DNA from: a virus
Lineage: Duplodnaviria > Heunggongvirae > Uroviricota > Caudoviricetes
Length of the DNA: 37,037 nucleotides
IMG/VR virus record: IMGVR_UViG_2541047915_000010
Location: 1 to 37,037 of that record
Strand: one strand, 5' to 3'
Shown: in pieces, positions 3,851-36,706 of the stretch
Layout: every line of letters starts with the position of its first letter
Position numbering within the stretch: position 1 is the first letter of the stretch
Made by a program: the position numbers and the translations under genes
The notes under the pieces: model-generated
What the model saw: only the letters and a program-made list of their open reading frames with translations
Told to the model about the DNA's origin: nothing
Databases searched by the model: none

Positions 3851-3991
3851 GCACCTCCAACTGCCGGAAACCACGTCGGGCTTCAGCAGCTCATCCGGCA
3901 GCAAAACAAACTCCATTAATTCCTGTTCCGGGCCTTTCCTGCACCTTGTGGCGGGAGGCCTTCGCACATCTGTAACAAGAGGATTGCCGCA

Positions 3992-8222: not shown

Positions 8223-8226
8223 ACCA

Positions 8227-20813: not shown

Positions 20814-22375
20814 CAGTGAAATACTACGCCATTCTGACTAATCAGGGCGCGGCACGACTGGCTAACGCGACGATGCTCGGCAGTAAGCTGAATCTGACGC
20901 AAATGGCCGTTGGTGATGCAAATGGTGTGTTACCAACACCAGACCCTGCACAAACAAAACTGATTAACCAGAAACGCATTGCACCGCTGAATCTTCTGAG
21001 TGTTGACCCTAACAATCAGAGCCAGATTATTGCGGAGCAAATCATCCCTGAAAACGAGGGAGGATTCTGGATCCGTGAGATTGGTCTTTATGATGATGAA
21101 GGTGTACTCATTGCGGTGGCAAACTGCCCGGAAACGTACAAACCGCAGTTGCAGGAAGGCAGTGGACGCACCCAGACTATCCGCATGATTCTGGTTGTCA
21201 CGAACACCGAAGCCATCACGCTGAAAATCGACCCGTCTGTGGTTCTGGCAACCCGCAAATATGTGGATGATAAAATATCAGAGCACGAACAATCACGACG
21301 TCACCCGGACGCCTCGCTGACCGTAAAAGGTTTTACTCAGTTAAGCAGTGCAATTAACAGTGAATCAGAAACACTGGCCGCAACACCGAAAGCGGTTAAG
21401 GCTGCATATGACCTGGCTAACGGGAAATATACCGCCCAGAACGCCACCACTACACAAAAAGGGATTGTTCAGCTCAGTAGCGCCACGAACAGCACGTCTG
21501 AAACGCTGGCAGCGACACCAAAAGCTGTTAAGGCGGTAATGGATGAAACGAACAAGAAAGCACCATTAAACAGCCCGGCACTGACCGGAACGCCAACAAC
21601 ACCAACAGCGCCACAGGGGACTAATAGTACCCAGATCGCAAGCACGGCTTTCGTTATGGCCGCGATTGCCGCACTTGTAGACTCGTCACCTGATGCACTG
21701 AACACGCTGAACGAACTGGCTGCGGCGCTGGGCAATGACCCGAATTTTGCGACCACCATGACTAACGCGCTTGCGGGTAAGCAACCGAAGGATGCCACCC
21801 TGACGGCGCTGGCGGAGCTTGCTACATCAGCAGATAAACTCCCATATTTTACAGGGGCAGATCGTGCCGCGTTAACCGCGTTGACAAGTGTTGGACGTGC
21901 CATTCTTGGCAAAACCAGCACTCAGGGAGTTCTTGATTACCTTGGTTTGGGGGAAGGCTCTGCACTGCCCGTTGGTGTACCCGTTCCGTGGTCCTCAGCA
22001 ACACCACCAACGGGCTGGCTGAAATGTAACGGTGCAGCATTTTCTTCTGAAATGTATCCCAGACTGGCAAGGGCTTATCCCACCAATAAATTACCGGATT
22101 TACGCGGTGAATTTATCCGTGGCTGGGATGATGGGCGCGGGATTGATGCGGGACGTACCCTGCTTTCAGGGCAGGATGGTACAAGTTTTTCTCATTACGG
22201 AGGTAATTTCGACATTGGGTCTGGTCATTCAATCAATAACTATGACCAAATTGTTTCTAACCAACCAGGCTTTTCCCGTTTTTCATTTGCAGGGCCTTCA
22301 CGAGGCGATGGGGTTAATTATGTAACCATTCGTCCTCGTAATATTGCGTTTAATTACATCGTAAGGGCAGCATGA
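20810..22375 (+). CDS. H: Tail fibre protein H (constant N-terminal part fused in this orientation to variable cassette SvA)
   Basis: 521 aa; internal repeat SETLAATPKAVKA twice; C-terminal region begins at crossover site 1 and ends with the shared TIRPRNIAFNYIVRAA tail. Confidence 0.85.
   Translation: MTVKYYAILTNQGAARLANATMLGSKLNLTQMAVGDANGVLPTPDPAQTKLINQKRIAPLNLLSVDPNNQSQIIAEQIIPENEGGFWIREIGLYDDEGVLIAVANCPETYKPQLQEGSGRTQTIRMILVVTNTEAITLKIDPSVVLATRKYVDDKISEHEQSRRHPDASLTVKGFTQLSSAINSESETLAATPKAVKAAYDLANGKYTAQNATTTQKGIVQLSSATNSTSETLAATPKAVKAVMDETNKKAPLNSPALTGTPTTPTAPQGTNSTQIASTAFVMAAIAALVDSSPDALNTLNELAAALGNDPNFATTMTNALAGKQPKDATLTALAELATSADKLPYFTGADRAALTALTSVGRAILGKTSTQGVLDYLGLGEGSALPVGVPVPWSSATPPTGWLKCNGAAFSSEMYPRLARAYPTNKLPDLRGEFIRGWDDGRGIDAGRTLLSGQDGTSFSHYGGNFDIGSGHSINNYDQIVSNQPGFSRFSFAGPSRGDGVNYVTIRPRNIAFNYIVRAA
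21930..21955 (+). other. DNA-invertase crossover site 1 (hix/gix-like, 12-2-12) inside H
   Basis: ttcttgattacc TT ggtttgggggaa; resembles hixL as I recall it (TTCTTGAAAACC AA GGTTTTTGATAA); marks the constant/variable junction of H. Confidence 0.6.
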
Positions 22376-22394
22376 AAACGTTGGTTTGGGGGAA
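22369..22394 (+). other. DNA-invertase crossover site 2 (same orientation as site 1), overlapping the H stop codon
   Basis: agcatgaaaacg TT ggtttgggggaa; identical right half-site and core to site 1. Confidence 0.55.
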
Positions 22395-22862
22395 GGCTCT
22401 GCGTTGCCCGTTGGTGTGCCCGTTCCATGGCCCTCAGCCACGCCGCCAACGGGGTGGCTGAAATGTAACGGTGCAGCATTTTCTTCTGAAATGTATCCCA
22501 GACTGGCAAAGGCCTACCCCACCAATAAATTACCGGATTTACGCGGTGAATTTATCCGTGGCTGGGATGATGGGCGAGGAATTGATGCGGCACGCGCTTT
22601 ATTGAGCATTCAAAACGGGATGTTGGAAAAACACCGCCATATTGTTGTAGCTAACGATGGATATGACACAAAGGATGAATGGGAGTTGGCCACGATTTTC
22701 AAAAAAACATATACGCAAGGCAGCGGGCTTGATGCCACAAATACAGGAGGGAGTTTGATTCCATCACCAACGCTTCATTCACGAGGAAGTATTGGTAACA
22801 CAGGTGGTAGTGAAACCCGCCCCCGCAATATTGCATTTAACTATATCGTAAGGGCGGCTTAG
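22386..22862 (+). CDS. Promoterless alternative tail-fibre C-terminal cassette SvB
   Basis: Begins inside crossover site 2 in the same frame as H relative to the site (LGEGSALPVGVPVPW...); shares the conserved N- and C-terminal segments with SvA and has a different central region. Confidence 0.6.
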   Translation: MGEGSALPVGVPVPWPSATPPTGWLKCNGAAFSSEMYPRLAKAYPTNKLPDLRGEFIRGWDDGRGIDAARALLSIQNGMLEKHRHIVVANDGYDTKDEWELATIFKKTYTQGSGLDATNTGGSLIPSPTLHSRGSIGNTGGSETRPRNIAFNYIVRAA

Positions 22863-22868
22863 TTATAT

Positions 22869-23480
22869 TCAACTGGCTGCTGCCAGTGGTATTTCCGGCA
22901 AGTTGATATCTGGTGCCATGTTTATATCCATTGCGTTCAGCGCGTCTATATAATCCAGCACGGCATTAAGCCGGGTGGTTTCTGCCTGCGTCAACTTCCG
23001 CCCGGCCTGCAACTTCAACTGAATCAGACTTATGGAAGCCATTGCCGCATCAGCCAGTGACTGACGCTTGGTTTCTGCCGCTTCTACTGCGGCACGATGT
23101 TGTGCCTCAGTATCTGTCACCCATTTTTCACCATCCCATTTATCGTATGGTGTTAACGGGGCGATAGTGGTTGTATTTTTCGGGTAGTCACCCAGCGCCG
23201 TGATTTCTTCGGTGTTTCCCGTGTCAGTGCTATAGACGGTTTCACCACGATGGTCTGGCGCATACTCCCATGAACTTAAATTCTCCGAACGGCGGATAGC
23301 ATAGCCCGCTTTATGTGCGCCCGGGGCATCTAAACAGGAATTTGCCGGAATACCGACACCCACAGCAAGATATTCAGTTGATTCGGAAATATATTCCCGT
23401 GTCTCACCATCATAGTTATAAACGACGATGTTTCCTGCCTGTACGGCAATAAGGTCATCATTTAATATCGCGTTATTCAT
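22869..23480 (-). CDS. Tail fibre assembly chaperone (Tfa; P2 G / Mu U family), copy 1
   Basis: 203 aa; C-terminal ...LTQAETTRLNAVLDYIDALNAMDI...PEIPL is the Tfa signature; co-oriented with and downstream of cassette SvC. Confidence 0.75.
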   Translation of the reverse strand: MNNAILNDDLIAVQAGNIVVYNYDGETREYISESTEYLAVGVGIPANSCLDAPGAHKAGYAIRRSENLSSWEYAPDHRGETVYSTDTGNTEEITALGDYPKNTTTIAPLTPYDKWDGEKWVTDTEAQHRAAVEAAETKRQSLADAAMASISLIQLKLQAGRKLTQAETTRLNAVLDYIDALNAMDINMAPDINLPEIPLAAAS

Positions 23481-23875
23481 TATGCGGTTCTCACAATATA
23501 ATTGAAGGCAATATTGCGTGGGCGGGTTTCATTCCCCTCTGAGGATTCAGTTCTGTATTGACTGGTAAATCTACCGTTAATTGCACCTTGCCGGACGGCG
23601 TTATCTGTCGACAACAGACTATCCCCTCCTTTGTCATTTGGCACCAGCACCGTGTTATCCCACGCATCCCATGACCGAATATTATGATAATGACTTCCTG
23701 TTAACCACCCCTGCATGCTTAAGATGCCCCTTCCGGCATCCACCCCGCGCCCATCATCCCAGCCACGGATAAATTCACCGCGTAAATCCGGTAATTTATT
23801 GGTGGGATAAGCCCTTGCCAGTCTGGGATACATTTCAGAAGAAAATGCTGCACCGTTACATTTCAGCCAGCCCGT
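23480..23875 (-). CDS. Alternative tail-fibre C-terminal cassette SvC (inner, left copy)
   Basis: Minus-strand ORF 23480-23965; from TGWLKCNGAAFSSEMYP onward it is fibre-like, while the part above 23875 is read-through of the complementary arm. Confidence 0.5.
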   Translation of the reverse strand, partial: TGWLKCNGAAFSSEMYPRLARAYPTNKLPDLRGEFIRGWDDGRGVDAGRGILSMQGWLTGSHYHNIRSWDAWDNTVLVPNDKGGDSLLSTDNAVRQGAINGRFTSQYRTESSEGNETRPRNIAFNYIVRTA

Positions 23876-23879
23876 TGGT

Positions 23880-24308
23880 GTGCCCGTTCCATGGCCCTCA
23901 GCCACGCCGCCAACGGGGTGGCTGAAATGTAACGGTGCAGCATTTTCTTCTGAAATGTACCCCAATCTGGCAAAGGCCTACCCCACCAATAAATTACCGG
24001 ATTTACGCGGTGAATTTATCCGTGGCTGGGATGATGGGCGCGGGGTGGATGCCGGAAGGGGCATCTTAAGCATGCAGGGGTGGTTAACAGGAAGTCATTA
24101 TCATAATATTCGGTCATGGGATGCGTGGGATAACACGGTGCTGGTGCCAAATGACAAAGGAGGGGATAGTCTGTTGTCGACAGATAACGCCGTCCGGCAA
24201 GGTGCAATTAACGGTAGATTTACCAGTCAATACAGAACTGAATCCTCAGAGGGGAATGAAACCCGCCCACGCAATATTGCCTTCAATTATATTGTGAGAA
24301 CCGCATAA
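23880..24308 (+). CDS. Alternative tail-fibre C-terminal cassette SvC' (inner, right copy)
   Basis: 142-aa ORF identical to SvC over most of its length; followed by tfa copy 2. Confidence 0.5.
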   Translation: MPVPWPSATPPTGWLKCNGAAFSSEMYPNLAKAYPTNKLPDLRGEFIRGWDDGRGVDAGRGILSMQGWLTGSHYHNIRSWDAWDNTVLVPNDKGGDSLLSTDNAVRQGAINGRFTSQYRTESSEGNETRPRNIAFNYIVRTA

Positions 24309-24919
24309 TGAATAACGCGATATTAAATGATGACCTTATTGCCGTACAGGCAGGAAACATCGTCGTTTATAACTATGATGGTGAGACACGGGAATATATT
24401 TCCGAATCAACTGAATATCTTGCTGTGGGTGTCGGTATTCCGGCAAATTCCTGTTTAGATGCCCCGGGCGCACATAAAGCGGGCTATGCTATCCGCCGTT
24501 CGGAGAATTTAAGTTCATGGGAGTATGCGCCAGACCATCGTGGTGAAACCGTCTATAGCACTGACACGGGAAACACCGAAGAAATCACGGCGCTGGGTGA
24601 CTACCCGAAAAATACAACCACTATCGCCCCGTTAACACCATACGATAAATGGGATGGTGAAAAATGGGTGACAGATACTGAGGCACAACATCGTGCCGCA
24701 GTAGAAGCGGCAGAAACCAAGCGTCAGTCACTGGCTGATGCGGCAATGGCTTCCATAAGTCTGATTCAGTTGAAGTTGCAGGCCGGGCGGAAGTTGACGC
24801 AGGCAGAAACCACCCGGCTTAATGCCGTGCTGGATTATATAGACGCGCTGAACGCAATGGATATAAACATGGCACCAGATATCAACTTGCCGGAAATACC
24901 ACTGGCAGCAGCCAGTTGA
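24308..24919 (+). CDS. Tail fibre assembly chaperone (Tfa), copy 2
   Basis: 203-aa protein 100 percent identical to the minus-strand copy at 22869-23480 (track translations are identical). Confidence 0.75.
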   Translation: MNNAILNDDLIAVQAGNIVVYNYDGETREYISESTEYLAVGVGIPANSCLDAPGAHKAGYAIRRSENLSSWEYAPDHRGETVYSTDTGNTEEITALGDYPKNTTTIAPLTPYDKWDGEKWVTDTEAQHRAAVEAAETKRQSLADAAMASISLIQLKLQAGRKLTQAETTRLNAVLDYIDALNAMDINMAPDINLPEIPLAAAS

Positions 24920-24925
24920 ATATAA

Positions 24926-25405
24926 CTAAGCCGCCCTTACGATATAGTTAAATGCAATATTGCGGGGGCGGGTTTCACTACCACCTGTGTTACCAATACT
25001 TCCTCGTGAATGAAGCGTTGGTGATGGAATCAAACTCCCTCCTGTATTTGTGGCATCAAGCCCGCTGCCTTGCGTATATGTTTTTTTGAAAATCGTGGCC
25101 AACTCCCATTCATCCTTTGTGTCATATCCATCGTTAGCTACAACAATATGGCGGTGTTTTTCCAACATCCCGTTTTGAATGCTCAATAAAGCGCGTGCCG
25201 CATCAATTCCTCGCCCATCATCCCAGCCACGGATAAATTCACCGCGTAAATCCGGTAATTTATTGGTGGGGTAGGCCTTTGCCAGTCTGGGATACATTTC
25301 AGAAGAAAATGCTGCACCGTTACATTTCAGCCACCCCGTTGGCGGCGTGGCTGAGGGCCATGGAACGGGCACACCAACGGGCAGCGCAGAGCCTTCCCCC
25401 AAACC
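24926..25405 (-). CDS. Promoterless alternative tail-fibre C-terminal cassette SvB' (inverted copy of SvB)
   Basis: Minus-strand ORF 24926-25459; identical in protein sequence to SvB from GLGEGSALPVG to the C-terminus; abuts inverted crossover site 5 in frame. Confidence 0.6.
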   Translation of the reverse strand, partial: GLGEGSALPVGVPVPWPSATPPTGWLKCNGAAFSSEMYPRLAKAYPTNKLPDLRGEFIRGWDDGRGIDAARALLSIQNGMLEKHRHIVVANDGYDTKDEWELATIFKKTYTQGSGLDATNTGGSLIPSPTLHSRGSIGNTGGSETRPRNIAFNYIVRAA

Positions 25406-25419
25406 AACGTTTTCGTCTT
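25394..25419 (-). other. DNA-invertase crossover site 5 (inverted relative to sites 1 and 2)
   Basis: Plus strand ttcccccaaacc AA cgttttcgtctt, i.e. reverse complement aagacgaaaacg TT ggtttgggggaa. Confidence 0.6.
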
Positions 25420-25473
25420 TATCCCTACCTATACCAACTATGTATTTTTCACGAAACAAAGAGGATGTTTTTT

Positions 25474-26073
25474 ATGCAAATTGGCTATATTCGTGTGTCA
25501 ACAAATGACCAGAACACGGATTTACAACGCAATGCACTGAACTGCGCAGGATGTGAACTGATTTTTGAAGATAAAATCAGCGGAACGAAATCAGCCAGAC
25601 CGGGATTGAAAAAACTGCTCAGAACGCTATCAGAAGGAGATACGCTGGTTGTCTGGAAGCTGGACAGACTGGGCAGAAGTATGAAACACCTGATCACGCT
25701 TATTGAGGAATTGCGGGAAAAAGGTGTTAATTTCCGTAGCCTGACGGACAGCATTGACACATCAACACCCATGGGGCGTTTCTTTTTTCACGTCATGGGG
25801 GCTTTAGCCGAAATGGAACGTGAATTAATTGTAGAGCGTACACTGGCCGGGCTGGCAGCAGCACGCGCACAAGGACGCATTGGCGGACGTCGCCCGAAGT
25901 TGACAAAAGAACAACACGAGCAAATAGCGAGGCTGATTAAAAACGGTCATGACAGGAAACAACTGGCGATCATTTACGACATCGGCATATCGACGATTTA
26001 TCGTTATCACCCTGTAGGCGATATACAGGCTGAAGAAACAACCAGGCAGACTCAGGAAAATGAAAACCGCTAA
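25474..26073 (+). CDS. Serine DNA invertase (Hin/Gin/Cin/Pin family)
   Basis: ORF 25279-26073 trimmed to the ATG at 25474 (gagga RBS 9 nt upstream); MQIGYIRVSTNDQNTDLQRNAL... with catalytic Ser in RVST and a C-terminal HTH (GISTIYRY); about 199 aa. Confidence 0.9.
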   Translation: MQIGYIRVSTNDQNTDLQRNALNCAGCELIFEDKISGTKSARPGLKKLLRTLSEGDTLVVWKLDRLGRSMKHLITLIEELREKGVNFRSLTDSIDTSTPMGRFFFHVMGALAEMERELIVERTLAGLAAARAQGRIGGRRPKLTKEQHEQIARLIKNGHDRKQLAIIYDIGISTIYRYHPVGDIQAEETTRQTQENENR

Positions 26074-26093
26074 TCTGACCATTAGCGGTTTTG
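26062..26093. terminator. Bidirectional terminator between convergent invertase and U
   Basis: Perfect 12-bp stem aaaaccgctaat / attagcggtttt with loop ctgacc; A-run on one side and T-run on the other. Confidence 0.6.
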
Positions 26094-26099
26094 CGTTAA

Positions 26100-26594
26100 T
26101 CAAAACAGCCCTTTAACGGAGCTGGCCGCGCTGTTAAGGGATGATGTGACCTTATCTTTGAAGCCGGACAGCATATCACTGAACGATGAGGATTGCAGGC
26201 GCTCCCGCAAATCCTCATCACAGCGTTCAAGGGTCAGTGAAAATTCTATCTTTTTCGCCTTACCGTAGCGATCAAACTCGGAGCGGGTCGTATTCGTTTC
26301 AGTCAGTACATACATGCCGTAAATCTGCCCGACACCATCAATCAGAGGCCAGGGGCGTCCTGTATATGCCTGCGTGGTCAGCAACGAAAGCGACACTTCG
26401 CCACCTGTAATTTCAGGATAAAGCACACCAGAAAGAACGATGCGATCATCACCTGCACCGATATACTGCCAGCTTGCTGAACGGTTAACGCGTTCATTTT
26501 TCACATGCCGCCAGCTTTTGTTTTGCTGTAACTGCTGATGCGGCAGCGTGCGCAGCTCAAAAACAAACATGCCGTAGATCATCATCATGGCCAT
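26100..26594 (-). CDS. U: Tail protein U
   Basis: N-terminal MMIYGMFVFELRTLPHQQLQQNKSWRH parallels P2 gpU (MMMLGLFVFRLRTLPYQELQRQRSWRH); the true start is probably one of the Met codons at 26585-26588 given the gaggag RBS. Confidence 0.8.
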   Translation of the reverse strand: MAMMMIYGMFVFELRTLPHQQLQQNKSWRHVKNERVNRSASWQYIGAGDDRIVLSGVLYPEITGGEVSLSLLTTQAYTGRPWPLIDGVGQIYGMYVLTETNTTRSEFDRYGKAKKIEFSLTLERCDEDLRERLQSSSFSDMLSGFKDKVTSSLNSAASSVKGLF

Positions 26595-26600
26595 GACTCC

Positions 26601-29417
26601 TCAATCTTTATCGTAAAAACTGCCACGCCCGGCACGGGCGCGCCGTTCCATTTCTGCCCTGACCATTTCACCGACCAGTTTCGCCAGTTCGCGGGGATTC
26701 TGTGTAACAACGTTATGCAGATGAACATGAATTTCACCGCCAAATCCGGAGGCAACAGGCTCCCGGTTACGGGAAGTTGCAGGAACTGATGCCACTGGCG
26801 ATCGTATGGCCTCTGCCACCGGGCGGGAGCTGGCCGCAACAACAGGGACCAGCGCCGGAGGCAGCGGAGCCGGAACCACAGGTGTGATATTAATTGCGGG
26901 GGCAGGCTTACTGACCTGCGCAATCTTCCGCTCCTGCCACTCCCCACGAACAGCAAGTGCGCGGGGCAGGTTCTTAAAGACAATATCGCCGGGGCCAATA
27001 CGTTTTTTCGTCTCATCAACCAGCTTACCTGTGTTATCAGCAATTTTGCTGAGTCTGCGTAGCGTACCGGTATTGCTGTCTGTGAGCGGTTTGTTGTCTT
27101 TGGGTTTATCACCTCCGGTGCCATTGCCATTTTCCACAGGCTTCGGCGGATTGATTTTCGCCAGGTCCCCCTGAAGCAAGGCAACCTTGTCCTGAAGAAT
27201 GGCCGCACGCTGTGCGTCTTCGATTTTCTTGCGCGCCCTTTCCGCTTCATCCGGAAGCACACCGAGCTTTTCAAGTATCCACGCCAGCGTATCCAGCAAC
27301 ATTTTTGCAGGTGTCAGAACAAGTTGTAACGCACCGCCAAGAACATTACCGAATGTCTCGCCAGCACTGGTACATTTATCCAGCGTTTCCTTGCTGGACT
27401 CCATCGGTGACAGCAGCGATTTAAACCAGTTAAACACCTGGCTGATCCCACTCCCGATTGCGTCAAAAACAGGACCAAACCGTTCAAAGGTTTCGCGCAA
27501 CGGGGTCAGCCTTTCCATAATCCCGCTGAACACCCCGGCAAAAAATGCCCTGATGGGATCCCAGTATTTCCAGATAAGGACGGCAGCTCCGGCAAGCGCA
27601 GCCACGATAAGACCAACCGGACTGAACAGCGCCCCGATAGCGCCTCCCAGTAAAGAAACGGAACCCGTCACCATTCCCCATAGTGCTGGCAGGACCCTGA
27701 CAGCATTCATTGATCCGGTCAGGAGAGAAAAACCAAGACGCAGTTTTGCCAGCGGACCAGCAAGCACACCAATAGCCAGCGACAACGAGCCAACCGTTGC
27801 AGTCATTGCCAGCAACGCACCGCCTGCTATCAGTAGCTGGCGCGTCAGTGCCGGATGGGCCTGCGCCAGCGCCGTCACCCTTGATACCACCCGCGTGAGC
27901 CACTGCGTGACAGAACGCAGCGGACCGTCAATCAGATCTGCAATGCGGATGCGCAACCCTTCCCATGCACTGCCGAGTGATTTCAGATCGCCGTCAAGGT
28001 TGTTGGCCATGACCTTTGCTGTGCGTTCAGCCTCACCGCGCGCGCCTTCAAGTTCTTTTCTCAGTTTAGGTAAGGAACCGTCACCCGCTGCATCAACGAG
28101 CGCCATAAACGATGTGAAAGCCTCTTCTCCGGCAATGTCCTTAAAGAACGATACCCGGTCAACTTCCCCGTATTTGCGGGTGGCTTTATAAAGGTCGGCC
28201 AGCACATCCTCCATCGGGCGCATTTTGCCGTTCGCGTCAGAGACTGCCACACCAAGCTCTTTCAGCGCCTCTGCTGCTGCCTTTGGCGGTGATGCCAGAC
28301 GAGCCAGGCTGGCACGCATTGCCGTCCCGGCATCACTCCCTCTGATACCCATATTCGCCAGCACACCCGCCATCGCTGCGGCCTGCTCCAGCGATATTCC
28401 CAGCTTACCCGCCACCGGACCTGCATATTTCATGGTTTCGCCCAGTGCGCGAAGGTCAGTGTTGGTACGGGTAAATGCTGCGGTGAGCGTGTCGCCAACC
28501 CGGTCCATCTGGTCAGCAGAAAGGCCGAACTGCGTCAGGATATTTGAGCCAATATCCGCCGTCTCGCCGAGATCCATGCCGCCAGCCGTTGCCATGCTCA
28601 GCACGCCCGGAAGCGCAGCCTGAATGGCCTGCGGAGTGAAGCCAGCCATTGCAAGAAATGCCTGCCCACTGGCGGCATCGCCTGCGGTGAACTGCGTTTC
28701 AGAGCCAAGTTTTAACGCCTGCTCACGCAGCGCCTTAAACTGCGGGCTGTTCTGGTCGATTCGCGTCAGTGCCTGAACGCGGGACATCTCTTTGCCGAAC
28801 CCGATCGCAGGCTGCAAAAAACGCCCGGCAGCATAGCCGCCAGCCGCTGCCGCACCAATTGCCAGCGCACCACCTGTTTTCAGTTTTCCCGCGGTTTCCC
28901 GCACGCGCGAATACCGCTCACGCGCCCGCGTTACACGCGCAAGCGCCTGCCGTTCGCGTTCAAGCTGGTTGTTGTACTGTTCGGTGCGTCTGATGGCCTG
29001 CTGGATGGTGTTATCGCTGCCTGTCAGGGAAATGCCGTGGCGTTTCAGCTCTCCGCCAAGCTCCCGCATTTTCTGAATTTCCCGTGTGCGCAATTCATTC
29101 AGGCGTTCAAGCCGGGTGCTTAACTGCTGCATCAGCTTTTGTTGTTTTTCGCTGAGCACTGTACCCGTGCGTTGTAACTGATTAAGGGCGTTAAGCTGGC
29201 GTCGCGCTTTCACGATACCCGCATCCGCTTTACTGACAGCGTCGCGGGCGCGCTCAAATGAACGCGCCTGACGCTCGAGATTTTTGATCGCCCCCTGCGT
29301 TCGCTGGATGGAGTCACCAAACTGCCCCATCAGGCGGCGGGCGTTTTCGGCAGGTCGGGTCAGCCTGTCAACGGCGCTGAAAGCGACCCGGATATCAAGA
29401 GTCTTCATTGTCTGCAT
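26601..29417 (-). CDS. T: Tail tape measure protein T
   Basis: ORF 26601-29444, about 940 aa, coiled-coil N-terminal half and Gly/Ala-rich hydrophobic segments; start set at an internal Met (29417 or 29408) downstream of the E' stop; start uncertain. Confidence 0.8.
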   Translation of the reverse strand: MQTMKTLDIRVAFSAVDRLTRPAENARRLMGQFGDSIQRTQGAIKNLERQARSFERARDAVSKADAGIVKARRQLNALNQLQRTGTVLSEKQQKLMQQLSTRLERLNELRTREIQKMRELGGELKRHGISLTGSDNTIQQAIRRTEQYNNQLERERQALARVTRARERYSRVRETAGKLKTGGALAIGAAAAGGYAAGRFLQPAIGFGKEMSRVQALTRIDQNSPQFKALREQALKLGSETQFTAGDAASGQAFLAMAGFTPQAIQAALPGVLSMATAGGMDLGETADIGSNILTQFGLSADQMDRVGDTLTAAFTRTNTDLRALGETMKYAGPVAGKLGISLEQAAAMAGVLANMGIRGSDAGTAMRASLARLASPPKAAAEALKELGVAVSDANGKMRPMEDVLADLYKATRKYGEVDRVSFFKDIAGEEAFTSFMALVDAAGDGSLPKLRKELEGARGEAERTAKVMANNLDGDLKSLGSAWEGLRIRIADLIDGPLRSVTQWLTRVVSRVTALAQAHPALTRQLLIAGGALLAMTATVGSLSLAIGVLAGPLAKLRLGFSLLTGSMNAVRVLPALWGMVTGSVSLLGGAIGALFSPVGLIVAALAGAAVLIWKYWDPIRAFFAGVFSGIMERLTPLRETFERFGPVFDAIGSGISQVFNWFKSLLSPMESSKETLDKCTSAGETFGNVLGGALQLVLTPAKMLLDTLAWILEKLGVLPDEAERARKKIEDAQRAAILQDKVALLQGDLAKINPPKPVENGNGTGGDKPKDNKPLTDSNTGTLRRLSKIADNTGKLVDETKKRIGPGDIVFKNLPRALAVRGEWQERKIAQVSKPAPAINITPVVPAPLPPALVPVVAASSRPVAEAIRSPVASVPATSRNREPVASGFGGEIHVHLHNVVTQNPRELAKLVGEMVRAEMERRARAGRGSFYDKD

Positions 29418-29924
29418 TCCCGCTGCGAAGTGCCGCCCGCTCACGCCAGCTAACCACTTCGCCGGGCGTCATCATGAAGATTTCGGCGGGCGACCAGTTA
29501 AAAATAACGGCAATATCTGCCACAAAGTCTTCTATGTGCTCAAAGCACACAACCGTGATCAGGCTTCCGTCACCTGTTCGTTCTTCCCGCCAGAGTCCGC
29601 ACCGCTCAAAAAATTTACGGCAACCACACATAACTGAATAAAGTCACGGGATGCCATTTTTTTGATCGTCACTTCATCCAGTCGCGGTGATGTCACGCGT
29701 GACAGCAGCGTAAACATGGATTCCGCTTTCAGATTCAGCACATCAGACAGCGACAAATCTCGCAGAGATCCAGCCTGCTCAATAGCCCCGGTGATCTCCA
29801 CATACGTGATTTTTTCGCCGCCTCGCTCAATGGGTTGGGTAAGTTTTACGCCACGCTCACTGGTTTCTTTCACAGTGTCAGCAACTACCGTGTTTTCGGT
29901 ATCGATGTTTTTCGTCTCTTTCAT
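29395..29924 (-). CDS. E+E' frameshift fusion product (programmed -1 frameshift)
   Basis: The -1 frame ORF 29395-29631 overlaps the 3' end of E; slippery heptamer TTTTTTG on the coding strand at 29607-29613, as in P2 E/E' and other tail chaperone pairs. Confidence 0.6.
29559..29924 (-). CDS. E: Tail assembly chaperone E
   Basis: 121-aa ORF between FII and T, as P2 gpE. Confidence 0.75.
   Translation of the reverse strand: MKETKNIDTENTVVADTVKETSERGVKLTQPIERGGEKITYVEITGAIEQAGSLRDLSLSDVLNLKAESMFTLLSRVTSPRLDEVTIKKMASRDFIQLCVVAVNFLSGADSGGKNEQVTEA
29607..29613 (-). promoter_or_regulatory. Slippery heptamer T-TTT-TTG for the E/E' -1 ribosomal frameshift
   Basis: Plus strand caaaaaa = minus strand ttttttg; in E frame ..aat ttt ttg.., E' frame ..aaa ttt ttt gag.. 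Confidence 0.6.
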
Positions 29925-29978
29925 CAGGAAACTCCTTTCAGTCAGAGGCGACGCACTGCGCCGCCTGCATATTACTTA

Positions 29979-30491
29979 TCAGCCAAGCCCAAGCGCGGAA
30001 CGGATGCGATCGGGCACAATGTCCTTGCCGTCCTTCCGGTAAATGAAGTTCAGCAGGTCAATCTCCCACAACGGACGATCGTTAACACTCAGCTTGTAGT
30101 AGGTGTTTTTAATGGCGTAAGTGTGTGATGTGGCTTCGCCCTGTTTGGCTTCCCCCATATCAATTTCCGTCACACGTCCGCGCATTTCGACTTCATACAG
30201 GTCGCTTTCTGCATCGGTGTAGTATTCACCCGCAAAACGCAGCAGCGTGCCGTCAATCGTGCCGCCATACTTAAGGAACAGCTCACGAACTGCGCCCCCC
30301 ATGACAAAGCTCGCATCAAGCGCGGAGTCGTCCAGACCGAGATCAATACTTACCGCCCCCATCATGCCACCACCCCGGTAGCTGTCGGTTTTGCGCGTCA
30401 GCTTAGGCAAAGTGACGGACGTCACCTTACCCACTTCGTTTTCACCATCCACAAACAGCGTAAAAAAGCGAAGATGTTTTGGCACAGCCAT
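29979..30491 (-). CDS. FII: Tail tube protein FII
   Basis: 170 aa (P2 FII about 172 aa); immediately downstream of the sheath gene. Confidence 0.85.
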   Translation of the reverse strand: MAVPKHLRFFTLFVDGENEVGKVTSVTLPKLTRKTDSYRGGGMMGAVSIDLGLDDSALDASFVMGGAVRELFLKYGGTIDGTLLRFAGEYYTDAESDLYEVEMRGRVTEIDMGEAKQGEATSHTYAIKNTYYKLSVNDRPLWEIDLLNFIYRKDGKDIVPDRIRSALGLG

Positions 30492-31675
30492 CAGGCACCT
30501 CCCAGCACCGCAAATGCGGGTTCAAAGTATTCATCAGTAAACGTCTGGTAAAGCTCCATGTCTTCCAGTGGCGGAACGGGCGTATATTTGTAGCGAATAC
30601 GCACACGCCCCTGACGTAAATCCGTGGTGCTGTTATCCACCACGTCATACCAGCACTCCGCGCCAATCAGTTTCCCGGCAGTCACCAGTGAATCCAGTTT
30701 TGCCCTGATGGCACTGATAACATCCTTCACGTTCGCAGGCGTCAGTGGACTGTCGATGGTTTCAAACTGCGCTTCCGCAATTGAATCAGCCAGCACCTGT
30801 GCGGTTCGGGTATACACCTCAAAGATGTAGGCGTTCGTTTCCGGTGTGCGGTTGCCCCAGAAGCGGAACCCGTTGCGACGAATAATGGTCGTGATTTCTT
30901 TGTTGTTGAGGCTGTTGGCATCGCTGTCTTCGGCCTGCAACGACCAGAACACATGCCTCGACATCCCCAGCACATTTTTAACCGGAACGTTGGACAGTGA
31001 TTTGTGCCATCCCTGCTCATGGTCAATGTACGCACGAAGGCCGCACGCATAGGCAGGCGCGGGGAACGTTTCGTTTTTGCCACTTTTCGGGTTGTAGGCG
31101 ATGAAGTCCGGCCATAAGAGCATCACCTCACGTTCGTTGAATTTCTGGCGGTAGGTAATCGCCTCAGCCATCGTGTTACAGCCGTGACATGAGGCATACA
31201 CAAACGCGCGCAGTTTACCTGCAATCACGCACAGGGATTTTGTTACAGCCTCCGTGTCCAACTCCGGCGCGGCCAGAATACGCGGACGGTATCCGATGCT
31301 TTCATCCTGCTCTGCAACAAGCAGCGCATACATCCCCGTATAGCTGCCGTCATCCTCAGAACCACCGATAACCAGTTGATCCTGCGTCTTTCCGCCTTCT
31401 TCTTTGTGTTCAGCCACGCGAACGACGATCACCTTTGTGCTCACCTGGTCTGCGATGGCCTTAAGCGCACGATAAAGCGTCCCCGTTGTCCCGCATTTTC
31501 CCAGCACGTCATTGACGCGGGTCAGCAGTGTGGGCTTGTTCAGCGGGAACAGCTTCGCGTCCGCATCATCCGCCGTTGCCACGATACCGATAACGCTGGA
31601 ATCAACATCGTTAATCGCTGTTACCAGGTCGGTATTTTCCGTAACACGGGCACCATGAAAACGAGTTTCACTCAT
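30491..31675 (-). CDS. FI: Tail sheath protein FI
   Basis: 394 aa; LRAFVYASCHGCNTMAEAITYRQKF, EQGWHKSLSNV, RRNGFRFWGNRT, YKYTPVPPLE align with P2 FI as I recall it. Confidence 0.9.
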   Translation of the reverse strand: MSETRFHGARVTENTDLVTAINDVDSSVIGIVATADDADAKLFPLNKPTLLTRVNDVLGKCGTTGTLYRALKAIADQVSTKVIVVRVAEHKEEGGKTQDQLVIGGSEDDGSYTGMYALLVAEQDESIGYRPRILAAPELDTEAVTKSLCVIAGKLRAFVYASCHGCNTMAEAITYRQKFNEREVMLLWPDFIAYNPKSGKNETFPAPAYACGLRAYIDHEQGWHKSLSNVPVKNVLGMSRHVFWSLQAEDSDANSLNNKEITTIIRRNGFRFWGNRTPETNAYIFEVYTRTAQVLADSIAEAQFETIDSPLTPANVKDVISAIRAKLDSLVTAGKLIGAECWYDVVDNSTTDLRQGRVRIRYKYTPVPPLEDMELYQTFTDEYFEPAFAVLGGA

Positions 31676-31832
31676 AGCTTCAGCCCCTTGTATCCGTTAA
31701 ATGATTCGGCAACAATCATCACCCACCACGCGCGTAATCTCACCCCTGCGCCATTCTCCCGCCACGGCGACAACAAAAAGCAGTAACCCCCTCCGCACGC
31801 ACATGCGACCATGCCATACAGGGAGGGAACAG
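31676..31832. promoter_or_regulatory. Divergent intergenic region between FI (minus) and D (plus); expected late promoters
   Basis: Positional only; 157 bp between divergent start codons. Confidence 0.3.
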
Positions 31833-32942
31833 ATGACCGACACCACCATGCAATTGCTCAGTCAGGGCACAGACCCCGTGAAAATGCCGGATTTTGATAT
31901 TCTCGCGGAGGGTAAAACGCTGTCAGGCATGGCAGAGCGCCTGATGAGCCTGTCACTGACCGACAACCGGGGATTTGAGGCGGACCAGCTCACCATCACG
32001 CTGGATGATGCGGATGGTCAGTTGCAGCTACCGCCACGGGGCGCGCGCCTGACGGTTCTCATTGGCTGGAAAGGAGAACCGCTGACAGAAAAAGGCACTT
32101 ACATTGTTGATGAAATTGCTCATGAAGGACCGCCCGACAGACTGACCATTTCAGCCAGAAGCGCAGATTTTCGGGATGAATTTAACGTCAAGCGCGAAGT
32201 ATCTTGGCATGATGTGACCGTTGAACGCGTGGTGTCTGCAATTGCTCACCGATACGGCCTGAAACCGCAAATCAGCGAAATGCTGATGGATATTGAAATC
32301 GACCACGCTGACCAGACCGAAGAAAGCGACATGTCCTTCCTTACGCGCATGGCGGAAATGCTGGGCGCAATCACCACGGTAAAAAGCGGCAATCTGTTAT
32401 TCATCATGCCAGGTGGTGGCGTGAACGCACAGGGGCAGCCGTTGCCCTCGTTCGCCATTACACGCAGCAGCGGCGATCGCCATCAGTTCCGCATTGCTGA
32501 CCGCGAGGCGTATACGGGGGTACGCGCCTACTGGCTTGATCTTAATTACGGGAAAAAGAAAAAAGTCAGCGTGAAACGCCGCAAACCGCCAAAACCCAAA
32601 AAGGAGAAAAGCAGCAGTCGGGAAGGCGACTATATGGAAGGTGCGGAAGGCAACGTGTTTGTGTTACGCAAGACTTATCAGAACGAGCAGGCAGCAAGAC
32701 GCGCAGCGGCGGCAAAGTGGCAGCAGCTACAACGCGGAGCCGCATCATTCTCCATCACGCTGGCGCGTGGTCGTGCAGAACTCTATCCCGAAATGCATGG
32801 CACAGTGACAGGCTTTAAAAGCGAGATTGATTATCAGGACTGGATTATTGCAAAAGCCGAGCACACCATTGATAACAGCGGCTTTACCACGCAGCTTGAA
32901 CTTGAAGCAAAAATCCCGGAATGGATAGCAGAAACAGAATAA
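31833..32942 (+). CDS. D: Tail protein D (late gene D, gpD family)
   Basis: ORF 31701-32942 trimmed to the ATG at 31833 (RBS gggaggg); MPDFDILAEGK...LSLTDNRGFEADQL...ISARSADFR, basic KKKK..KPKKEK stretch and FTTQLELE end, as in P2 gpD. Confidence 0.9.
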   Translation: MTDTTMQLLSQGTDPVKMPDFDILAEGKTLSGMAERLMSLSLTDNRGFEADQLTITLDDADGQLQLPPRGARLTVLIGWKGEPLTEKGTYIVDEIAHEGPPDRLTISARSADFRDEFNVKREVSWHDVTVERVVSAIAHRYGLKPQISEMLMDIEIDHADQTEESDMSFLTRMAEMLGAITTVKSGNLLFIMPGGGVNAQGQPLPSFAITRSSGDRHQFRIADREAYTGVRAYWLDLNYGKKKKVSVKRRKPPKPKKEKSSSREGDYMEGAEGNVFVLRKTYQNEQAARRAAAAKWQQLQRGAASFSITLARGRAELYPEMHGTVTGFKSEIDYQDWIIAKAEHTIDNSGFTTQLELEAKIPEWIAETE

Positions 32943-33069
32943 ATCTCTTAAAAATATTATTTTTGAGATGTGCTTCTACACTGACAGTAAGAACAAAAGA
33001 TAATGTATCAGCCCACTAGATGTCAGAGGTTGGGGCATCAACCAGATGCTAACAATAATACGGATGTTT

Positions 33070-33106
33070 TTCCCACATGACAGAGGAAGTCAAGTATAAT
33101 CTTCAC
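33070..33106 (+). promoter_or_regulatory. Putative sigma-70 promoter for the 1039-aa ORF
   Basis: Perfect -10 hexamer TATAAT at 33095-33100; -35 is weak; about 90 bp upstream of the ATG at 33191. Confidence 0.3.
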
Positions 33107-33190
33107 AGTCCATCCCGTCCAAGGGAATATGACTCAATAGTAAAAGTTCCAGTTTAGTTAGTAGACCCACACTTTATAGAAGAGTAATTC

Positions 33191-36100
33191 ATGATTGGAC
33201 AATTTTTAAGTGCAACAGAGATTTTAGCAAAGAACTATGTTCGTAATAAAATGGTTAAAAATCCATTTTATTCGAATTTAAAATGGAATTTTATTGAAAA
33301 AAACATCATAAGATTAACATCCTCACCGGTTAAATCAGTACTTTGCATATCAGCTTTTTCATTTGTACTACTTTATGTTGGATATTTAAACGAATTATTT
33401 ATAAAAAATAATCTTTTACATTATTTCCCGTTTAGGCATTCATTAACCGAATGGCAAACAACCATTTTAAGTGGCCAATTGACAATTATTGGTATTGTAT
33501 ACCCCCTTGTTATAGGTTTAGTAAGTGTCTTATTCCAAAAAAAGGCAGATAGAAAAATAGCCCAAACTGCTTATCAGCGTTACTCAGGATTCATGCTTGC
33601 TGGACTCAGCGGGCTTTTCTTATCAGGATTTATACTTCTCAGTGTACTAATTAAAACTGTCTTTGGAAGTTATCTTTATGGTATAGCTTGTCTAATCAGC
33701 ATATTATGGCTTTTGATAAACATAGTTCTTTCTATTTGGTTCTTTATCGTGAGTCTTGAAATTCTTGATGATGTAAAACGGCAAATAATTATAAAGCGAT
33801 ACATTGCCTTCGAAATAGTAATGCCCCATATTTGTAACAAAATCTCAGCCAAGCTTAGGTTATACCCTATCTATCAAAAACATAACTATTCAAATTTAGA
33901 AATCAAGCAAGCCGATTACAAAGGAGAATACATATCTGTGGCTAGCGGTTATTCTAAGGAAGATGAGTTAAGTTTATATCACCGTCCTTTTCAACTTACT
34001 CTTAATCTTATTAATTGCCAACTAAAAAAGAAGAATCATTTTGCGTCATTTGTCATTGGTGATAATCGTGCAAAAGAAACAGAATCCACGGGTAAGATAC
34101 TTTTTAGCGTTAAAAATATCAAACCAGACAGCTTATTAATAAAAATACTTAAGCAATGTTTTTATAGGGCTCCGATTAAAGGAGGAGATTTTTCCGTAAG
34201 TCTTACAATGCAGGCTATAACAGCAGATACGTATATGTATCTGCGGGATTCTGATCTCATTAGTTTTGACGATGCTATCTCTGCATTAATTAATAACTTT
34301 AATAATCTCTGCGATTTGTATTTTTTTCAAGATGATAATACCAACAATAACTTCTTACTGATCACTACAGAATTATTTGAACGGAGTTTTCAATATGAGT
34401 TTTCAGATGAAGTTTATAAAATATCAAATAATTCCATGGATAAAATTAATCTTTCTGAAAGATTTTTTGAATTATGTCTTTGGAGCGGAGTGCGTATTAT
34501 CAATAATAGAAAACATCTTATCAGCAATGAACTTTGTATCTATATGGGAATTACTCGTTCACAATGGTCAATATTAACAGAATGGTTCCGAAACAACCAA
34601 TCACTCTTAAATGCCTCGCTTCGTTCACGTTATAATCGTATATTAAGAACCTATACCACTGTTTGGGAGCAATATCAAGAAAGCATAAACTTTCGTTTCT
34701 GCAATACAGAGAATTCAGATTTATTTGAATTATTTTGCAAAACGCAACTACAAGAACTTCCATCGATGATTATTGATGCAACACAGACTCGCGATCCTTC
34801 TACTATTGATACAGCCGTCGATCTTATTAACCGATGGCAGCACTCAATGAATATTGACAGCCATTCGGTAGAAAAATACAGTTACAAAGGCCAGCTTTTT
34901 AACCCGGGTTTTTTCATATCCAAAAAACTAAACTTCAATTCAGACAGAGAGTGGTTCAATATTGCCATCATAAATGCGTTGACTGACATGCGTATATGCA
35001 CATGTCTTTATCTGACATCAAGAATCAATACTTCTGACAAACTAATGACACATTACATTAAACTTATTTTAGAGGGTAAACTTATTGACCAAACCGGTGG
35101 ATATGAAACTCCCACTGAAGAAATTGATAATGCAAGCCAACTAATCAAGATATTAATTAGAATCTGCCTGTGGACATGGTCTGAAAATATGGAGCATAAT
35201 GGGTGGATGAATAGTTTAGCAAGGCGTTTACGTGACTATGATAAAACAGACATGGTGATGGGCAGAGTTTACAGTAATGTTTTTGACTGTGGATTTATTG
35301 ATATGGAACAATCATGGGTTCAGCTATTATTAATTTTTTCTAACAAGAACGATAGCGTATCAAAAGAAATAAAAGAAGCAATAGAAAACAACTATATAAC
35401 ATATCGTGAGAAGCAACGACTCATTGGAGTATTATCAAAAATTTGTAACTCCATCGAATACACTAAAATCAAGCTGACTTTAACATTGGACGATCTCCAA
35501 ACAAAAAAAGAAAACTTAAGAAAGTTGCTTCAAGAGCATATTAACATGCTAAAGAAAGATCTTGATATGAGACTTCAGGATGCTGCCATAGATGTACATC
35601 GACTAGATAGCACTGCACGTAAAACATCAGAACATCTTCGTAAACGCATCAAGAAAACGCTCCCTCTTTCACTTTTCAAATCTATTGATTTTAAGCAGGC
35701 TAGCGATTGTTTCACAAAACATAAGATATCTATTAAGATAGATAAAGAACCGTATGCCGAAGGAATAGAATCCATCCCTTATATCAATGAAGGTGATATT
35801 CAAGCAGACTTAATTCTCAAGGACATCCAGAGAATAATACTTTCAAATTTATTTAGCACTGGCTGTTCGCAACATACCGTAATAGAAGATTTCAATATGT
35901 TGATTGATCACATAAAATCATCTGCTGACTTGGCTGGCAAACTGGTTCTTGTGATGAGTAAAGAGATCTTTCAGCAATATAATCGTATGCTTTTCGATAA
36001 TCCCAACCTCAGAGAACTAATGAGAAAAAATGATGATGGCTCTATGAACATAACTACTGAATCCGGTACCTGTAAGGTTTACTTCTTACCATTTGTTAAT

Positions 36101-36310: not shown

Positions 36311-36318
36311 TATCTTTG

Positions 36319-36349
36319 ACGGCGCTCCTTAGAGTGCCGTTCGTTTATT
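36319..36349 (+). terminator. Putative rho-independent terminator after the 1039-aa ORF
   Basis: Imperfect stem acggcgctc / gagtgccgt with loop ctta, followed by tcgtttatt. Confidence 0.45.
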
Positions 36350-36445
36350 AACTAATGCTAAAAATCATTATATAGAGAAAGTCATGTTTAAATCTTAGAG
36401 AATACAACCTAGAATAGTGCAAGCACTACAATAAGAGAGGTCGCT

Positions 36446-36706
36446 ATGTTCCGTTGTCCGCTTTGTGGCGCATCTGCCCGTATCCGCACCAGTCGTCCGG
36501 AAAATGATTCAAACACCGTGAGACAAAAGTATTATCAGTGTAACAATCTAGAATGCGGCGTATGTTTCTCAACACTGGAAGCCTTCCACAAATTCACTTC
36601 AAAGCACGTCTCCCCCATTCACTCATCAGAGGGCATCCCGTGGCATGAACTGCCAACTTCACACAGAGGAAACAATCAGATGAGTTTGCCCTTACCTCAG
36701 AATTAA
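36446..36706 (+). CDS. ogr: Late gene activator Ogr (zinc-finger, Ogr/Delta family)
   Basis: MFRCPLCGASARIRTSRPENDSNTVRQKYYQCNNLECGVCF has the CxxC...CxxC arrangement and parallels P2 Ogr (MFHCPLCQHAAHARTSRY...YHQCQNVNCSATF); agagagg RBS. Confidence 0.85.
   Translation: MFRCPLCGASARIRTSRPENDSNTVRQKYYQCNNLECGVCFSTLEAFHKFTSKHVSPIHSSEGIPWHELPTSHRGNNQMSLPLPQN

Follow-up and report, generated by a model that had tools for sequence, protein, structure and literature searches.

A leftward tail block between rightward genes

The window, by which we mean the whole 37,037-nt stretch of viral DNA analysed here, carries a P88-like (Xuanwuvirus-type) P2-family prophage. Homologues of FI, FII, E/E', T, U and D occur together in it (recognised by Pfam for U, T, FII, FI and D), which makes up the contractile-tail late module of P2-like phages (Peduoviridae), and an Ogr/Delta-type activator is encoded near D, as expected of such a module. 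According to the open reading frame (ORF) list and Pfam, U, T, E/E', FII and FI all lie on the minus strand between 26100 and 31675, flanked by a plus-strand invertase gene on one side and by plus-strand D and ogr on the other (Table 1). H is also on the plus strand, like D and ogr, and the canonical P2 order, in which FI-FII-E-T-U-D share a strand with H/G and ogr, is not found here. The ORF strands, the Pfam identities and the gene order of P2 together confirm the inversion of FI–U relative to P2 that a sequence-only reading of this DNA had claimed.

Table 1 Features of the inverted block, its flanks and the predicted late promoters
Feature	Position	Strand	Basis and remarks
Din-family serine DNA invertase	25474–26073	+	Pfam Resolvase and HTH_7; start agrees with RefSeq annotation of an identical copy
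Convergent-gene hairpin	26063–26092	both	AAAACCGCTAAT-CTGACC-ATTAGCGGTTTT; terminator scan; 12-bp stem
U, gpU tail protein	26100–26594	-	Pfam Phage_P2_GpU, E 5.5e-39; last gene of leftward F operon
T, gpT tape measure protein	26601–29408/29444	-	Pfam PhageMin_Tail, E 2.3e-58; P88 annotation
E' overlapping frame	29395–29631	-	ORF list
E, gpE	29559–29924	-	ORF list; P88/RefSeq annotation 'phage tail protein E', 'GpE family phage tail protein'
FII, gpFII tail tube protein	29979–30491	-	Pfam Phage_tube, E 7.5e-47
FI, gpFI tail sheath protein	30491–31675	-	Pfam sheath domains; first gene of leftward F operon
Predicted -10 of leftward pF	31715–31720	-	GATGAT on minus strand; from conservation
Predicted shared Ogr-type activator site	31755–31772		TCT-N12-ACA(ACAAAAA), centre 31763.5; most conserved spacer block
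Predicted extended -10 of rightward pD	31804–31812	+	TGc GACCAT; from conservation
D, gpD baseplate hub / late control D	31833–32942	+	Pfam Phage_GPD
ogr-type zinc-finger late activator	36446–36706	+	Pfam Ogr_Delta, E 5.3e-14
P/O -10-like hexamer	12351–12356	-	TAATCT, 43 nt from P/O site centre
Predicted second activator site, divergent P/O spacer	12391–12408		TCT-N12-ACAACAAAAG; second-best weight-matrix match in the window
P/O -10-like hexamer	12441–12449		TGc CATCAT, 44 nt from P/O site centre

By tblastn against P2 and Fels-2, all proteins of the tail module, E included, are 31–53% identical to their counterparts: gpFI 45–48% and gpD 49–53% to the proteins of both phages, gpU 46% to U of both (99% to that of P88 and PhiR44_2), and gpE 32% to P2 E. 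Homology to P88 places the likely start of gpT at the ATG at 29408, and E and E' are a predicted tail chaperone pair by analogy with P2, where the counterpart is made via a frameshift. D, detached from U in this arrangement, keeps the same start across relatives and has its own Shine-Dalgarno sequence, AGGGAGGG, ahead of position 31833. A 3.5-kb cargo island separates D from ogr, which directly follows D in most relatives; the 1039-aa cargo protein had no match in Pfam, PADLOC, NCBIfam or PDB sequence searches.

At the other end of the block, the invertase gene converges on U, with 26 bp between the invertase stop codon (26071–26073) and that of U (26100–26102), exactly the gap reported earlier. 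The hairpin in this gap overlaps the invertase stop codon; its folding energy is -16.9 kcal/mol on one strand (z -4.9) and -15.6 kcal/mol on the other (z -3.8). It is likely to be the bidirectional intrinsic terminator that had been proposed, although its T-tracts are short, with 4 T on each side. It is also present after U in close relatives, including PhiR44_2, which has no invertase here and matches the window from 26015 onward, hence across the hairpin. Of 90 unique sequences that follow U in relatives, 18 pass a strict hairpin-plus-T-tail rule, and we make no claim of a clade-wide terminator after U. By eye, many of the remaining sequences show a strong hairpin.

Distribution of the inverted order

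The order seen in the window recurs in P88 and, without an invertase at this position, in PhiR44_2 and SEN4; PhiSM is collinear with the window across the block. P88 and PhiSM are active, plaque-forming phages (PMC6456863). Among 5426 complete Escherichia coli genomes, the FI/D junction is contiguous in 1357, at 95–99% identity, and the invertase/U junction in 621, while an artificial canonical U-to-D junction built for this lineage is contiguous in none of the 1415 E. coli genomes carrying these sequences. Across more than 20 genera of Enterobacterales, 41 of 46 loci read U- T- E- FII- FI- D+ ogr+, the other five being truncated or disrupted and none of them canonical. The informative loci of IMG/VR divide by similarity of D, all 71 with a D identity of 60% or more being inverted and all seven at 49–54% being canonical.

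FI on the minus strand diverging from D on the plus strand, together with a minus-strand U facing the tail-fibre end, is the mark of the P88-like clade, and the window carries it. The canonical order is found in P2, Fels-2, 4LV2017, phiCTX and Mannheimia phage 1152AP, and the inverted FI–U order is therefore, very probably, a fixed and old derived marker of the P88/SEN4 clade. The FI–U proteins are 31–48% identical to those of P2/Fels-2 and the other structural proteins 33–61%, about equally far. The sequence-only reading had offered a lineage feature, a large and possibly invertase-mediated inversion and a mis-assembly as possible origins; the shared orientation in P88, SEN4, the 41 loci and all 71 IMG/VR loci bears out the lineage feature, and the synteny comparison that it had proposed, with P2 canonical and P88-like relatives inverted, makes the arrangement simply lineage-typical.

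The finding is thus ordinary: about a quarter of complete E. coli genomes carry this abundant P2-like lineage, and the inverted arrangement is its standard gene order. The arrangement is already known in the sense of being visible in deposited annotated genomes, those of the reference phages P88 and SEN4 among them; the P88 and SEN4 papers contain no inversion, orientation or gene-order term, a literature search on inverted orientation of P2-like FII returned nothing, and we found no printed discussion in the literature searched. In practice, the divergence of FI from D is a clean synteny marker by which the clade, with a D identity of 60% or more, can be told apart from phages of the canonical P2, 186 and Fels-2 type, and it is not to be taken for a mis-assembly.

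A candidate shared late promoter between FI and D

FI (start at 31675) and D (start at 31833) diverge across 157 bp. In P2 the tail gene D is essential; here it is cut off by a terminator and by 5.6 kb of antisense DNA, and so needs a local promoter. The earlier suggestion that the spacer must hold promoters in both directions is supported by a conserved shared-site architecture. An alignment of 39 unique spacers from relatives picked out as conserved a TGT/TCT-N12-ACAAC block and, to either side, a -10-like hexamer at 43 nt from the centre of that block. An exact TGT-N12-ACA is present in 18 of the 39, and 19 depart from it by one mismatch, the half-site proximal to FI being TCT rather than TGT in the window. 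The leftward hexamer, assigned to pF, keeps its 43-nt distance in 38 of 39 unique spacers, with A2, A5 and T6 invariant; the rightward hexamer, assigned to a promoter that we call pD, does so in 36 of 39, with A2 and T6 invariant in all 39 and with the extended -10 conserved upstream (T in 38/39, G in 39/39). From these positions, transcription is predicted to start near 31708 leftward and near 31819 rightward.

A position weight matrix built from 37 relatives scored 22.7 bits at the F/D site and 18.7 bits in the P/O spacer, and at most 9.4 bits elsewhere in the window (shuffle maximum, 12.5 bits), so that the F/D and P/O spacers are the only ones found, with no third site. There is also no intergenic gap ahead of V, and hence no place for a P2-like pV. 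An exact TGT-N12-ACA search of the window gave 5 matches where chance alone predicts 8.8, and none of them fell within a late spacer; it missed both sites because each reads TCT-N12-ACA, which is recognisable only through the alignment of relatives. A sigma-70 consensus scan detected no promoter in the FI/D spacer (8 matches in the window, 6.7 expected by chance). Its one minus-strand match there, at 31926–31899 inside D, was judged to be due to chance.

In relatives, the FI start codon most commonly lies 82.5 nt from the centre of the site (range 78.5–89.5), as it does at P2 pF, and the polarity of the site also agrees with P2 pF, the TTGT half being distal to FI. As at the divergent P2 promoters pP/pO, a single TGT-N12-ACA-type dyad (TCT-N12-ACA in the window) lies between divergent late genes, and both predicted starts fall about 55 nt from its centre, compared with ±55.5 nt annotated in P2. 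The 157-bp spacer appears to be a copy of the node that pP and pO share in P2, and conservation together with this analogy to P2 suggests a promoter model in which both starts would depend on Ogr through one shared site.

Origin of the arrangement and comparison with known systems

Most probably, the F operon (FI-FII-E/E'-T-U) underwent a single inversion in an ancient shared ancestor and was then fixed, being neither switchable nor recent. Together with FI, the inverted segment would have moved pF and the Ogr-type activator site of that promoter, so that a dyad-like site, now in the middle of the FI/D spacer, probably serves two mirror-image late promoters: a leftward pF, driving FI to U and ending at the hairpin shared with the invertase gene, and a new rightward pD, driving D, which would now be transcribed separately and has a ribosome-binding site to itself, and possibly reading on towards ogr. 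Late genes would then run from two bidirectional Ogr-dependent nodes, P/O and F/D. We consider it moderately probable that the ancestral inversion brought the Ogr site of pF beside D to create a second P/O-style bidirectional late promoter, leaving the clade with just two shared-site nodes and no separate pV, and making D, the cargo slot and ogr a new Ogr-driven unit.

Two readings would deny the arrangement its age or its reality. Din-family enzymes invert DNA between inverted sites, and the invertase gene ends only 26 bp from U, so the block might have been flipped recently, or might still be flipped reversibly, through a secondary crossover site. However, with up to 3 mismatches allowed, the only copies of the 21-bp crossover core TTCCCCCAAACCAACGTTTTC are those at 21935–21955, 22374–22394 and 25394–25414, neither it nor the generic Din core AAACCNNGGTTT lies near the block junctions, and no inverted repeat of at least 14 nt joins 26074–26099 with 31676–31832; a search of 20800–33200 returned only tail-fibre repeats and short chance matches. 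Crossover-like sequences and inverted repeats, for which the sequence-only reading had suggested looking at the junctions, are thus missing there at these thresholds, and the 8-bp inverted match that it had called likely chance (26112–26119 and 31694–31701) is indeed at chance level, with about 0.2 expected for regions of such size by a rough estimate. The block consequently lacks the inverted bounding crossover sites of a Din-family (Gin/Cin/Pin/Hin) invertible segment, and genomes do not show both orientations, FI diverging from D in 1357 against U joined to D in none of 1415. PhiR44_2, SEN4 and most other loci keep the orientation without an invertase at this position. A recent or reversible flip is therefore effectively refuted, its probability being negligible, and the invertase serves the tail-fibre segment, not the FI–U block. 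That the orientation is an assembly error in the window draws some support from the adjoining tail-fibre region, which seems mis-assembled or uniquely rearranged: it contains a 1505-nt, 99% palindrome whose centre was found in no other complete E. coli genome. Both block junctions nevertheless recur in the complete E. coli genomes counted above, and the same order is present in independently sequenced phages and in prophages of many genera, which makes such an error vanishingly improbable.

An old inversion in place has a closer competitor in module exchange. Phage genomes are mosaic, and the clade ancestor might have swapped its F operon for a foreign FI–U cassette integrated in reverse; the sequence comparison used gives the same picture for in-place inversion and for ancient reverse re-insertion, and T and E are the most divergent proteins (31–33% identity to P2). 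T and E are, however, also the fastest-evolving within the clade; FI, FII and U have diverged from P2/Fels-2 (44–48% identity) to the same degree as Q, P, N, J and D (43–54%), and FI/FII/U identities follow those of D within the clade. Moreover, the spacing from the pF site to FI and the polarity of the site agree with P2 pF, and we regard such an exchange as quite unlikely. It is also unlikely, if somewhat less strikingly so, that the FI/D spacer is not a bidirectional late promoter with a shared site, with D expressed instead from a promoter that does not need Ogr, or from some other element so far unrecognised, and with a different role for the conserved right-hand block. The rightward hexamer of the window, GACCAT, is a weak -10, and to our knowledge the late promoters described for P2 all belong to the canonical arrangement. 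On the other hand, at least 36 of the 39 diverse spacers place the two hexamers as mirror images about a single site centre, each at a distance of 43 nt; A2 and T6 never vary, and the D side also has TGn; the F/D geometry is identical to that of P2 pP/pO, the window's own P/O spacer has the same site at the same spacing, and the plus strand of the FI/D spacer contains no sigma-70-like promoter.

If the second Ogr-dependent bidirectional promoter predicted under ancestral inversion is real, re-use of a symmetric activator site would make inversion of an operon tolerable. The variable D–ogr cargo slot would be placed inside a probable late transcription unit, where cargo could be expressed late and with auto-amplification.

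Among known systems, the Mu G/Gin, P1 C/Cin and e14 P/Pin segments resemble this locus in that a homologous invertase adjoins the FI–U block and that the tail-fibre region immediately upstream (21935–25414) is a real invertible segment, complete with crossover sites. Unlike those segments, the FI–U block has no flanking crossover sites, and its other orientation was never found.

The closest relatives are P88 (Peduoviridae, Xuanwuvirus), PhiSM, PhiR44_2, 500465-2, 520873 and P884B11, which are collinear with window positions 26015–32938 at 94–96% DNA identity and have the same order, invertase+ / U- T- E'- E- FII- FI- / D+ (PhiR44_2 without the invertase). They differ from the window in their tail-fibre cassettes, and the low-GC cargo island between D and ogr belongs to the window and is absent in P88. 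P88 covers 75% of window positions 1–25000 at 96.3% identity and matches 65% of 20800–33200 at 94.9%, giving a product of about 0.62–0.72, which falls at the borderline set by the ICTV genus convention of about 70% nucleotide similarity over the genome. Salmonella phage SEN4 (Senquatrovirus) shows the same inverted FI–U diverging from D, although its D is only 63% identical, its tail fibres are different and it has no invertase here; because SEN4 belongs to another genus, the arrangement spans more than one.

The P2 F operon (pF: FI FII E E' T U D, then ogr), which lies on one strand, has the same gene content and internal FI–U order as the window; an Ogr-type activator is also common to the two, as is a site of the TGT-N12-ACA type that precedes FI by about 82.5 nt. 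In the window, by contrast, FI–U is on the strand opposite to H/G, D and ogr, and D is detached, whereas U and D abut in P2; protein identity is 31–49%. At P2 pP/pO, one activator site serves both promoters, whose annotated starts (3016 and 3127) are separated by 111 bp and lie 55.5 nt to either side of the centre; the F/D spacer likewise has one dyad-like site midway between divergent late genes, with predicted starts 111 bp apart, and -10 elements about 44–49 nt from the site centre on both sides are common to the two. The window would thus contain the pP/pO-type architecture twice, at P/O and, as predicted, at F/D.

Gene order and variable regions of the prophage

By open reading frame and Pfam analysis, the window is a P2-family prophage with the succession integrase, A, Q/P, O-to-H, tail-fibre inversion region, invertase, tail block, D, cargo island and ogr. 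Whereas P2 carries FI-FII-E-T-U-D-ogr on one strand, here FI to U lie opposite to D and ogr, and the strands of the Pfam-assigned genes thus confirm the inversion claimed by the sequence-only reading. Its junctions were also exact: the invertase and U stop codons are 26 bp apart, with a hairpin (26063-26092, 12-bp stem) between these genes that folds well on either strand, and the FI and D start codons are separated by 157 bp.

Coordinates of genes and predicted promoter elements in the window
Feature	Position	Strand	Basis or remark
Integrase	596-1720	minus	ORF list
Serine invertase	25474-26073	plus	Pfam
U	26100-26594	minus	Pfam
T	26601-29444	minus	Pfam
E and overlapping E' frame	29559-29924 (E)	minus	homology; annotation of near-identical phages
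FII	29979-30491	minus	Pfam
FI	30491-31675	minus	Pfam
Predicted transcription starts	near 31708 and 31819		111 bp apart
FI-side -10-like hexamer	31715-31720	minus	spacer alignment
Predicted activator site	31755-31772, centre 31763.5		spacer alignment
D-side -10-like hexamer	31807-31812	plus	spacer alignment
D	31833-32942	plus	Pfam
Cargo ORF	33191-36310	plus	1039-aa protein
ogr	36446-36706	plus	Pfam

The tail-fibre region contains a near-perfect palindrome (22374-25414, centre 23879-23909) of two 1505-nt arms, 99% complementary and 31 nt apart, which carries mirror-image duplicates of a tail-fibre assembly gene (203 aa) and of two C-terminal fibre cassettes; its inversion would scarcely alter the sequence. 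Not one of 5426 complete E. coli genomes contained the palindrome centre (23600-24190) as a contiguous stretch. The palindrome is likely to have been created during assembly from a population mixed in its inversion state; otherwise it is a unique rearrangement, and probably an unstable one.

Between D and ogr lies a 3.5-kb island (32943-36445, about 33% GC). Only 5 of the 5426 E. coli genomes have it at this site, and in these PGAP names its gene 'MFS transporter' or 'hypothetical protein'. The N-terminal part of the cargo protein has several hydrophobic segments, and the protein also has a large soluble domain; searches of Pfam, PADLOC and NCBIfam gave no hit, and no PDB sequence matched significantly. 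Other genomes hold different cargo in the same slot, for example a DUF3800 protein or a 340-aa hypothetical protein. In most relatives ogr directly follows D. The slot resembles a hotspot for variable cargo or defence-type genes. Additionally, a 319-aa ORF (7263-8222) and the next small ORF (together 7263-8538) are ParM-like partition genes, named 'plasmid segregation protein ParM' and 'plasmid partitioning/stability family protein' by RefSeq in a closely related prophage copy (strain 14EC047, L005). Plasmid-type partition genes are unusual inside a P2-like prophage.

Origin and distribution of the inverted block

Three explanations had been offered for the inversion: mis-assembly, a large inversion, possibly mediated by the invertase, and a lineage feature. 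The layout of phage P88 (Xuanwuvirus) is identical to that of the window, invertase included, and PhiR44_2 has the same layout without the invertase; PhiSM, 500465-2, 520873, P884B11 and Chuche align collinearly, with 94-96% identity, throughout the block and across its two junctions. P88 is an active phage, chemically inducible and lytic, and PhiSM is active and forms plaques (PMC6456863), so the inverted arrangement is functional. Of the 5426 complete E. coli genomes, 1357 contain an uninterrupted FI/D junction and 621 an uninterrupted invertase/U junction, a recurrence that, together with the isolated phages, excludes mis-assembly. An artificial canonical junction, in which the U 3' end of the window's lineage was fused to its own D 5' end, was contiguous in 0 of 1415 E. 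coli genomes containing these sequences, excluding an actively switching segment.

The invertase that adjoins U in the window is missing in most clade members. Its crossover site, TTCCCCCAAACCAACGTTTTC, occurs in three copies with at most three mismatches (21935-21955, 22374-22394 and 25394-25414), all inside the tail-fibre region; the same search of the window found none near 26074-26099 or 31676-31832, and no inverted repeat of at least 14 nt joins the two block junctions. The 8-bp inverted match between them is at chance level, as had been suspected, and we reject inversion by this enzyme. In PhiR44_2 (L002, about 3835-4087), similarity to the window begins at 26015 despite the absent invertase gene, taking in the last ~58 bp of the invertase frame and the shared hairpin (26015-26099). 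This points either to a deletion of the invertase in that phage or to an older terminator region of the F operon that the invertase 3' end overlaps.

The lineage explanation held. A D-protein scan of one genome per species gave 46 loci in more than 20 Enterobacterales genera (D 65-98% identical), including Salmonella, Edwardsiella, Serratia, Erwinia, Pantoea, Klebsiella, Kosakonia, Brenneria, Pectobacterium and Symbiopectobacterium. The order U, T, E, FII and FI on the minus strand, then D and ogr on the plus strand, was present in 41 loci and the canonical order in none, the remaining five being truncated or disrupted; the invertase adjoins U in only about seven. When IMG/VR was scanned with a D alignment covering both inverted and canonical phages, the split was clean: at 60% D identity or more, every one of the 71 informative loci was inverted, whereas at 49-54% all 7 had U directly upstream of D. 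Synteny with named phages agrees: SEN4 (Senquatrovirus), whose D is 63% identical, shares the inverted order of P88 and PhiR44_2, whereas 4LV2017 (Elveevirus), P2, Fels-2, phiCTX and a Mannheimia Baylorvirus are canonical. Together these results show the inversion to be a derived character common to a multi-genus clade. FI-U proteins are 31-48% identical to those of P2/Fels-2 and other virion-module proteins 33-61%, an equal divergence that fits an old in-place inversion better than recent import. Contigs of Vagococcus sp. WN89Y (L008, with the full inverted block) and Planococcaceae MAG UBA3378 (L049) contain this enterobacterial prophage with proteins 95-99% identical; these copies in Firmicutes-labelled assemblies are probably contamination.

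Predicted late promoters

In P2 the tail gene D is essential. Here 5.6 kb of antisense sequence and a hairpin resembling a terminator lie before it, and it therefore needs its own promoter within the 157-bp spacer. The suggestion that this spacer needs promoters in both directions is thus borne out for D by the layout, and conserved hexamers on both sides are consistent with it. Alignment of 39 unique FI/D spacers of the clade revealed three conserved blocks in otherwise variable sequence. The central one is a GACAACAAAAA block whose ACA is preceded exactly 12 nt upstream by TGT or TCT. The published consensus of P2 late promoters (PMC3931495) is TGT-N12-ACA, which 18 spacers match exactly and 19 with one mismatch. 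On the minus strand, the FI-side -10-like hexamer reads GATTAT, GAATAT or GATGAT (A2, A5 and T6 invariant), and the D-side -10-like hexamer, TGn-extended, reads (A/G)AnnAT (A2 and T6 invariant). The distance from the site centre to the start of the hexamer is exactly 43 nt in 38/39 spacers on the FI side and in 36/39 on the D side.

A position weight matrix built from the sites of 37 relatives, window excluded, was run over both strands of the 37-kb window. Its top match was the F/D spacer (22.7 bits) and its second the spacer between divergent P and O (12387-12416, 18.7 bits; site 12391-12408), which has the same hexamer spacing; all others reached at most 9.4 bits, against a shuffled-sequence maximum of 12.5. 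S and V overlap (18384-18399), leaving no intergenic room for a P2-like pV. With only these two strong sites, the phage appears to use two bidirectional Ogr-dependent nodes, and the O operon may run uninterrupted from O to the tail-fibre genes. Exact TGT-N12-ACA matches also occur upstream of the invertase gene, 16 nt from its start codon (25441-25458), and between D and the cargo ORF (32969-32986 and 33065-33082). If the invertase or the cargo gene were also under Ogr control, these positions would be of consequence; the matches may be meaningless, since the window total is below chance expectation.

P88-like and SEN4-like Peduoviridae normally have the inverted block, which is already present in annotated reference genomes and is not a new kind of feature; the P88, SEN4 and PhiSM papers do not describe it, nor did a targeted literature search find a description. 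In the P2 annotation, one activator-binding site (centre 3071.5) serves divergent pP and pO, with transcription starts at 3016 and 3127, each 55.5 nt from the centre, and the predicted window starts have the same separation. By analogy, a single Ogr-type site in the F/D spacer would serve a leftward FI promoter and a rightward D promoter. The distance from site centre to FI start codon, most often 82.5 nt in the clade, equals that of P2 pF, and in both cases the half farther from FI is the strong one, TTGT; this suggests that pF moved with the block. The sole modestly new point is this predicted shared-site bidirectional late promoter, a variation on P2 pP/pO.
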